A stretch of 64,000 nucleotides of DNA. It comes from Escherichia phage EcM-vB1. Made by a program: the position numbers and the translations under genes. The notes under the pieces were generated by a model. That model saw only the letters and a list, made by a program, of their open reading frames with translations. It was not told the origin of the DNA and did not search any database. Positions within the stretch are counted from its first letter, which is position 1. Each line of letters begins with the position of its first letter. Below, one piece after another: positions 33,657-34,263 of the stretch. The stretch is from sequence record PV574017.1; one strand, written 5' to 3'.

Positions 33657-34043
33657 GAAGACTAGATGCTCTGGAATGTGGACTGAAGCTCGTTACAACT
33701 CTTTCATCAAGTCAGGGATTCGTTCTCTGACTAGAAAGTGGAAGCCAATGTTCGATGCACTAGCAGACGCCAAGACAGAGAAGAAGATTAATCCAAAGAC
33801 AGGCAGACTGGCAATGCACTTTAAGTGTGCCATGTGTGGTTCTGACCACCCTGTAAAGGATATGGCTATTGACCACATAGAGCCTATAGTTCCTCTTGAC
33901 CATGAAGCCACTTGGGATGAGATCATCTCTCGTGCTCTGTGTGAGAAGAAGGTTTTCAGGTTCTGTGTAAAGACCCTTGTCATAAGATTAAAACAAAAGA
34001 AGAGAATGATGCAAGAAAACAATTCAAAAAAGGAAATGAGTGA
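33643..34043 (+). CDS. HNH endonuclease, frame-disrupted near 33945-33963
   Basis: CAMCG...DHIEP in one frame; terminal LCKDPCHKIKTKEEN in the frame one base lower, ending at 34043. Confidence 0.6.
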
Positions 34044-34263
34044 TGATCAAAAATCTACGCAACAAGTGCTTCGCTTTCGCTATCGCAATTGGAGAGGCGA
34101 GGTTGCTGACCGGTCCGTTATTCCACTCCGAACCTCCGTTGCTAGCTCCCGTTTTCATAACGGTGGCAAACCTTGTTGGATTATGACAGCGATAGATGTA
34201 GAGAAAGATGAGATTCGAGAGTTCAAACTCTCTGACATTATTCAGTATTACGATTTAATCTAG
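34036..34263 (+). CDS. hypothetical protein (75 aa)
   Basis: ATG with AAGGAA SD inside track ORF 33643-34263. Confidence 0.4.
   Translation: MSDDQKSTQQVLRFRYRNWRGEVADRSVIPLRTSVASSRFHNGGKPCWIMTAIDVEKDEIREFKLSDIIQYYDLI

Follow-up and report, generated by a model that had tools for sequence, protein, structure and literature searches.

A probable dropped base splits a conserved HNH endonuclease gene in the sequence record of Escherichia phage EcM-vB1

We analyzed a 64,000-nt stretch of DNA from Escherichia phage EcM-vB1 (PV574017.1), referred to here as the window. The window comes from a Kuravirus (phiEco32-like) phage of E. coli. A megablast search against GenBank phages returned 97 records, nearly all of them E. 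coli Kuravirus phages and phiEco32-like relatives (Gordonclarkvirinae) at 91-99% identity, and the closest genome was EcP-vB (PV591328.1; 99.5% over 24 kb). The ORF listing of the window contains a called ORF of 206 aa at 33643-34263, and the following features lie in and around it:

33465..33656, plus strand: upstream 63-aa gene (PHROG 10643), annotated in relatives; it overlaps the HNH start by 14 nt and lies in the same operon
33643..33945, plus strand: HNH codons 1-101 (C62-x2-C65, D77-H78), from the called-frame translation, matching the 133-aa HNH protein of ES17 and NJ01
33945..34043, plus strand: displaced HNH C-terminal tail GFQVLCKDPCHKIKTKEENDARKQFKKGNE, from the lower-frame translation, equal to ES17 residues 103-133
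33946..33947, plus strand: site of the missing base, AA where aligned relatives have AAA (codon 102, AAA Lys)
33953..33956, plus strand: TTTT run, originally taken for the lesion but not the lesion; aligned relatives also have four Ts
34009..34263, plus strand: separate 84-aa gene (PHROG 3715, borderline WYL), with its own 255-nt CDS in DE5 and ES17

Translation of the N-terminal part of the ORF in the called frame gives the HNH motif CAMCG...DHIEP, as originally predicted, within the text …FKCAMCGSDHPVKDMAIDHIEP…, and past 33945 this frame continues as the low-complexity reading KKVFRFCVKTLVIRLKQKKRMMQENNSKKE. Three-frame translation placed the terminal HNH motif (GFQVLCKDPCHKIKTKEEN...) one frame lower, again as predicted, where 33945-34043 reads EEGFQVLCKDPCHKIKTKEENDARKQFKKGNE followed by two stop codons. 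The lower frame opens after a TGA at 33942-33944, and a TGA at 34041-34043 closes the HNH tail. The 206-aa ORF is a chimera of an HNH N-terminus, a displaced HNH tail in another frame, and a separate overlapping downstream gene. Supporting the prediction that the called ORF has a two-part nature, relatives encode a 402-nt HNH CDS and an overlapping 255-nt CDS.

The 133-aa HNH protein is uninterrupted in relatives at 91-99% identity. The Kuravirus HNH of NJ01 (NJ01_041; YP_006906104.1) and ES17 (gp028; YP_010673320.1) occupies the same locus as the window HNH, between an exonuclease gene with the 63-aa ORF on one side and the WYL-like ORF on the other. Relative to these two proteins, the window copy is ~99% identical over codons 1-101, lacks one A of codon 102, and has no further notable difference; its displaced tail matches the ES17 protein exactly. 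In our own reading of the alignment and translations, differences between ES17 and SU7 in the tail are mostly synonymous in the lower frame. These comparisons indicate that the displaced tail belongs to the HNH gene.

The protein of relatives carries the HNH motif CxxC...DH...CxxxCH and K-x-K-T as C62/C65, D77-H78, C109/C113-H114, and K117-T118, with Gly104 at the position of the canonical Asn before "Q-x-L-C". The first half of this motif lies in the called frame of the window and the second half one frame lower. A tblastn search with the intact protein found 185 phage records, and in 173 of these a single place spans at least 80% of the query. In Vibrio, Pseudomonas, and Aeromonas phages, homologs with identities of 27-45% can be aligned in a single frame as far as residue 121 or beyond, a reach that takes in C109-x3-C113-H114-K-I-K-T118. 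The distant homologs thus keep the CHK-KT tail in one frame, and the finding named in advance as refuting the original prediction, intact homologs without this tail, was not obtained. The intact ES17 homolog matched eight PHROG "HNH endonuclease" families, with phrog_3106 the best (E=4e-40, residues 3-132), and the Pfam PF01844 match over residues 62-95 reached 15.1 bits, below the cut-off of 21.4. We did not detect a match to the intact protein in NCBIfam or a sequence match in the PDB, and a single-sequence AlphaFold2 model had a mean pLDDT of 39.1, too low for use. The intact protein falls in a cluster of 137 members, and all 15 of the 137 members listed are 133-135 aa in length. We did not find the patchy presence typical of a mobile homing endonuclease, the gene being at the same locus in all Kuravirus-like records listed. 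Taken together, the sequence comparisons indicate that this gene is an ordinary conserved Kuravirus HNH gene.

PMC9965538 equates this protein with YF01 gp25 and explicitly rejects a small-terminase label for the gene. HK97 gp74 is a terminase-associated HNH protein (Kala et al. 2014 PNAS, as cited in PMC9965538), and the Kuravirus protein resembles it in also being a small HNH protein; this likeness to terminase-associated HNH proteins would account for the "terminase small subunit" label in many GenBank records. In contrast to the HK97 protein, the Kuravirus HNH lies ~27 kb from the large terminase gene (60976-62513). The window HNH is not in the packaging module, since the large terminase and portal (52587-54859) genes are on the opposite strand, and annotation of relatives places it within an exonuclease/dNMP-kinase module.

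The downstream gene is annotated as a separate 255-nt CDS in DE5 and ES17, and NJ01 annotates only the HNH CDS. SU7 retains ATG 34009, and annotation begins the gene at this codon in ES17, DE5, and SU7. In the alignment, neither ATG 34006 nor ATG 34036 is kept in SU7. The original prediction gave this gene a start at 34036 with its own Shine-Dalgarno sequence. By direct reading, AGGA at 34031-34034 is just 1 nt before ATG 34036, a gap too close for normal Shine-Dalgarno spacing. The prediction of a separate gene holds in relatives, but its proposed start and ribosome-binding site do not. Conservation among relatives indicates that the downstream start is ATG 34009 and not 34036, and in most Kuraviruses this gene therefore shares 35 nt with the HNH tail. 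The downstream ORF matches PHROG 3715 (function unknown; E=8.5e-24), and its Pfam WYL match (PF13280, residues 18-77, E=2e-4) reaches 21.7 bits, just under the cut-off of 21.8. We also observed homologs of the protein encoded at 34009-34263, at 34-44% identity, in ~135-150-kb phages of E. coli, Cronobacter, Pectobacterium, Erwinia, and others, FV3 being one example among these phages with a small borderline-WYL homolog. In many such records, the region of the same match is annotated as endonuclease VII or "packaging and recombination endonuclease", which hints at a recurring pairing of a nuclease with a small WYL protein.

Other observations concern the surrounding genes. A 170-aa DNA N6-adenine methyltransferase (PHROG 111, E=7e-59) is encoded on the plus strand at 32942-33454, between the exonuclease gene and the 63-aa ORF. 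Of the relatives that we examined, DE5 and EK5 alone have this gene; nothing in EcP-vB matches 32925-33449, and in the annotations of ES17 and NJ01 the exonuclease is followed directly by the 63-aa ORF. The methyltransferase gene thus looks like an accessory insertion. On the other side, a 53-aa ORF at 34272-34433 (plus strand; Pfam DUF7438, E=1.8e-13; PHROG 653, function unknown) is conserved in relatives. EcP-vB differs from the window within the HNH gene itself, where an extra base (L007 position 11489, corresponding to window 34001) and nearby substitutions shorten HNH to 122 aa. The EcP-vB protein ends …CHKIKTKDGK*, and its gene overlaps the downstream one at an ATGA. Relative to the window, EcP-vB has further single-base indels of its own at 41725 and 42395, which are unpolarized against other relatives.

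When this region was aligned with DE5, ES17, and NJ01, the window differed in length by one A and nothing else. Where relatives read GAG AAA GAA GGT TTT CAG, the window has GAG-AAGAAGGTTTTCAG. The GAG-AAA-GAA of relatives becomes GAGAAGAA in the window at 33946-33947, with one A of GAGAAAGAAGG absent, and we write the deletion-bearing letters around the site as GAGAAGAAGG. The alignments indicate that the lost base is one A of the AAA codon for Lys-102. The prediction that a one-base length error caused the frame change agrees with this alignment in both the direction and the size of the shift.

We did not detect the HNH deletion in any of the 88 matching phage records. Across the 85 bases that surround the site, all 88 stayed below 99% identity, and the 7 closest records differed from the window there by the one-base gap only. 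The deletion-bearing 28-mer had no exact match in IMG/VR, metagenome contigs, or GTDB genome contigs, and the intact 29-mer was found in IMG/VR. The exact 206-aa fusion protein was likewise absent from a collection of ~15 billion proteins.

The whole window was compared with four genomes (EcP-vB, Ec3-ASingh, TH06, and ES17), the last three being added because EcP-vB has indels of its own and cannot polarize window indels alone. We defined an indel as private when the window differed from at least three of the four, and broken genes were found by tblastn of EcP-vB proteins against the window. This census yielded ~12 private indels, the HNH site and ~11 further losses:

157: T5 to T4, breaking a 73-aa ORF
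970: G5 to G4
1712: A5 to A4
3071: loss of a lone C in hairpin-like GACTCTTTTCGGAGAGTC
4890: G4 to G3, breaking a 323-aa gene
12748 (2 nt): TC lost from TCTCTCTC, breaking a 139-aa GGACT gamma-glutamyl cyclotransferase gene
13147: T5 to T4
26703: T4 to T3
33946: the HNH site
45606: TT to T, breaking a 344-aa gene
53680: loss of one C (CCCC to CCC, 53680-53681) in the portal gene (52587-54859, minus strand; 758 aa in relatives), which lies in two frames at aa 393 with 100% and 99.5% identity
61349: loss of one T (TTT to TT, 61347-61350) in the large terminase gene (60976-62513, minus strand; 513 aa in relatives), which lies in two frames at aa 389 with 99.2% identity on each side

All of these private indels are deletions, with no insertion (sign test, p ~5e-4), and their density is ~1 per 5 kb. 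Homopolymers of at least 3 bases contain 9 of the 12, against an expectation of 14% of positions (p ~3.5e-6). The deletions at 970, 1712, 3071, 13147, and 26703 fall outside or at the edges of large conserved ORFs. Tailed phages cannot do without terminase and portal, and DNA packaging fails when these genes are broken. Because both genes are essential for packaging, their frameshifts cannot be real in a replicating virus. The comparisons show that the HNH base is absent relative to all relatives and that a series of equivalent private deletions breaks essential genes. Such systematic dropping of bases, essential genes included, implies that the HNH frameshift is one instance of an artifact of the record.

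We therefore think that the HNH frameshift very probably reflects an error of sequencing or assembly rather than biology, with the technical cause inferred from these sequence comparisons. The HNH gene would be intact in nature, and one A of codon 102 would have been dropped during sequencing or assembly, a technical loss (under-called homopolymers or a consensus left unpolished) rather than a mutation. The wrong frame happens to run free of stops over the next 20 codons and to be the one in which the overlapping gene downstream is read. ORF calling would then fuse HNH codons 1-101, 20 nonsense codons, and an 85-aa downstream reading (from ATG 34006). A stop-free wrong frame that continues into the frame of the downstream gene would in this way give the spurious 206-aa ORF. 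Phage assemblies from long-read, Ion Torrent, and 454 data are prone to homopolymer indel artifacts. The window indels resemble such artifacts in being deletion-only, homopolymer-biased, frame-breaking, and scattered. They differ from the classical form in that several of the affected runs are short (2-3 bases), one loss is a TC dinucleotide, and one is a single C.

The main alternative is that a real one-base deletion pseudogenized HNH, removing C109, C113, and H114 of the catalytic/zinc motif and creating a fusion of the HNH N-terminus with the WYL-like protein. The sequence as given reads this way, phage HNH genes are often dispensable, and in EcP-vB the 3' end of this gene varies in a way that looks real. 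As points against an artifact, the A3-to-A2 change affects a shorter run than classical homopolymer errors do, a dispensable HNH gene may tolerate a real loss, and the EcP-vB variation amounts to natural length variation in the tail of this gene. However, none of the 88 records shares the deletion, three large contig collections lack it, and it sits among 12 private deletion-only events, of which those in terminase and portal cannot be real. We also observed no secondary decay, the displaced tail still equaling the ES17 protein. On balance, we regard a real deletion, which would have to coincide with several demonstrable artifacts, as very unlikely. If the A deletion were nonetheless real, HNH catalysis would be lost, the HNH-N-terminus::WYL-like fusion would be expressed, and the Kuravirus HNH would be dispensable, an outcome to which we give slightly less weight still.

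Two further readings concern the letters around the junction. In one, the missing base is a T of the TTTT run at 33953-33956, as the original prediction had proposed. A fifth T does restore the frame arithmetically, and this part of the proposal stands, but the lesion indicated by the alignment is a missing A. The alignment gap falls in the A run, and exactly four Ts are present at this position in DE5, ES17, NJ01, EcP-vB, and SU7, as in the window. Since all aligned relatives, including Suseptimavirus SU7 from a different genus, share the same four Ts, a missing T was ruled out. Moreover, repair at the T run yields EKKVFQ in place of the conserved EKEGFQ, which takes the form EK(E/G/D)GFQ across relatives. 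The chance that the T run holds the lesion is therefore negligible. The other reading invokes programmed -1 ribosomal frameshifting that restores the full HNH protein, with the HNH-WYL fusion as the zero-frame product. Consistent with such a mechanism, a -1 shift anywhere in 33945-33960 gives a near-normal HNH, and by direct reading tRNA-Phe could re-pair from UUC (33955-33957) to UUU (33954-33956). The junction GAG AAG AAG GTT TTC AGG, however, contains no X_XXY_YYZ heptamer, and 33958-34040 lacks a downstream structure (MFE -5.7 kcal/mol, z = +0.84 versus shuffles), as 162 of the 200 shuffles of this segment fold at least as well. The two-frame layout is also not conserved, with none of the 88 records sharing the shift. 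Because every relative encodes HNH in a single frame, there is nothing conserved that needs recoding. We accordingly rejected a programmed frameshift, which we consider extremely improbable.

The value of identifying a probable dropped base in the HNH gene is practical. The HNH feature holds no new biology and is a known gene with an artifact. Record PV574017.1 needs polishing before annotation, as at least seven genes are split by dropped bases, including those for the large terminase and portal, and the 206-aa "HNH-WYL" ORF is unfit for databases as a fusion protein. For annotators of these phages, our analysis supports beginning the downstream gene at 34009, overlapping the HNH tail, and treating the "terminase small subunit" label in GenBank as unfounded.
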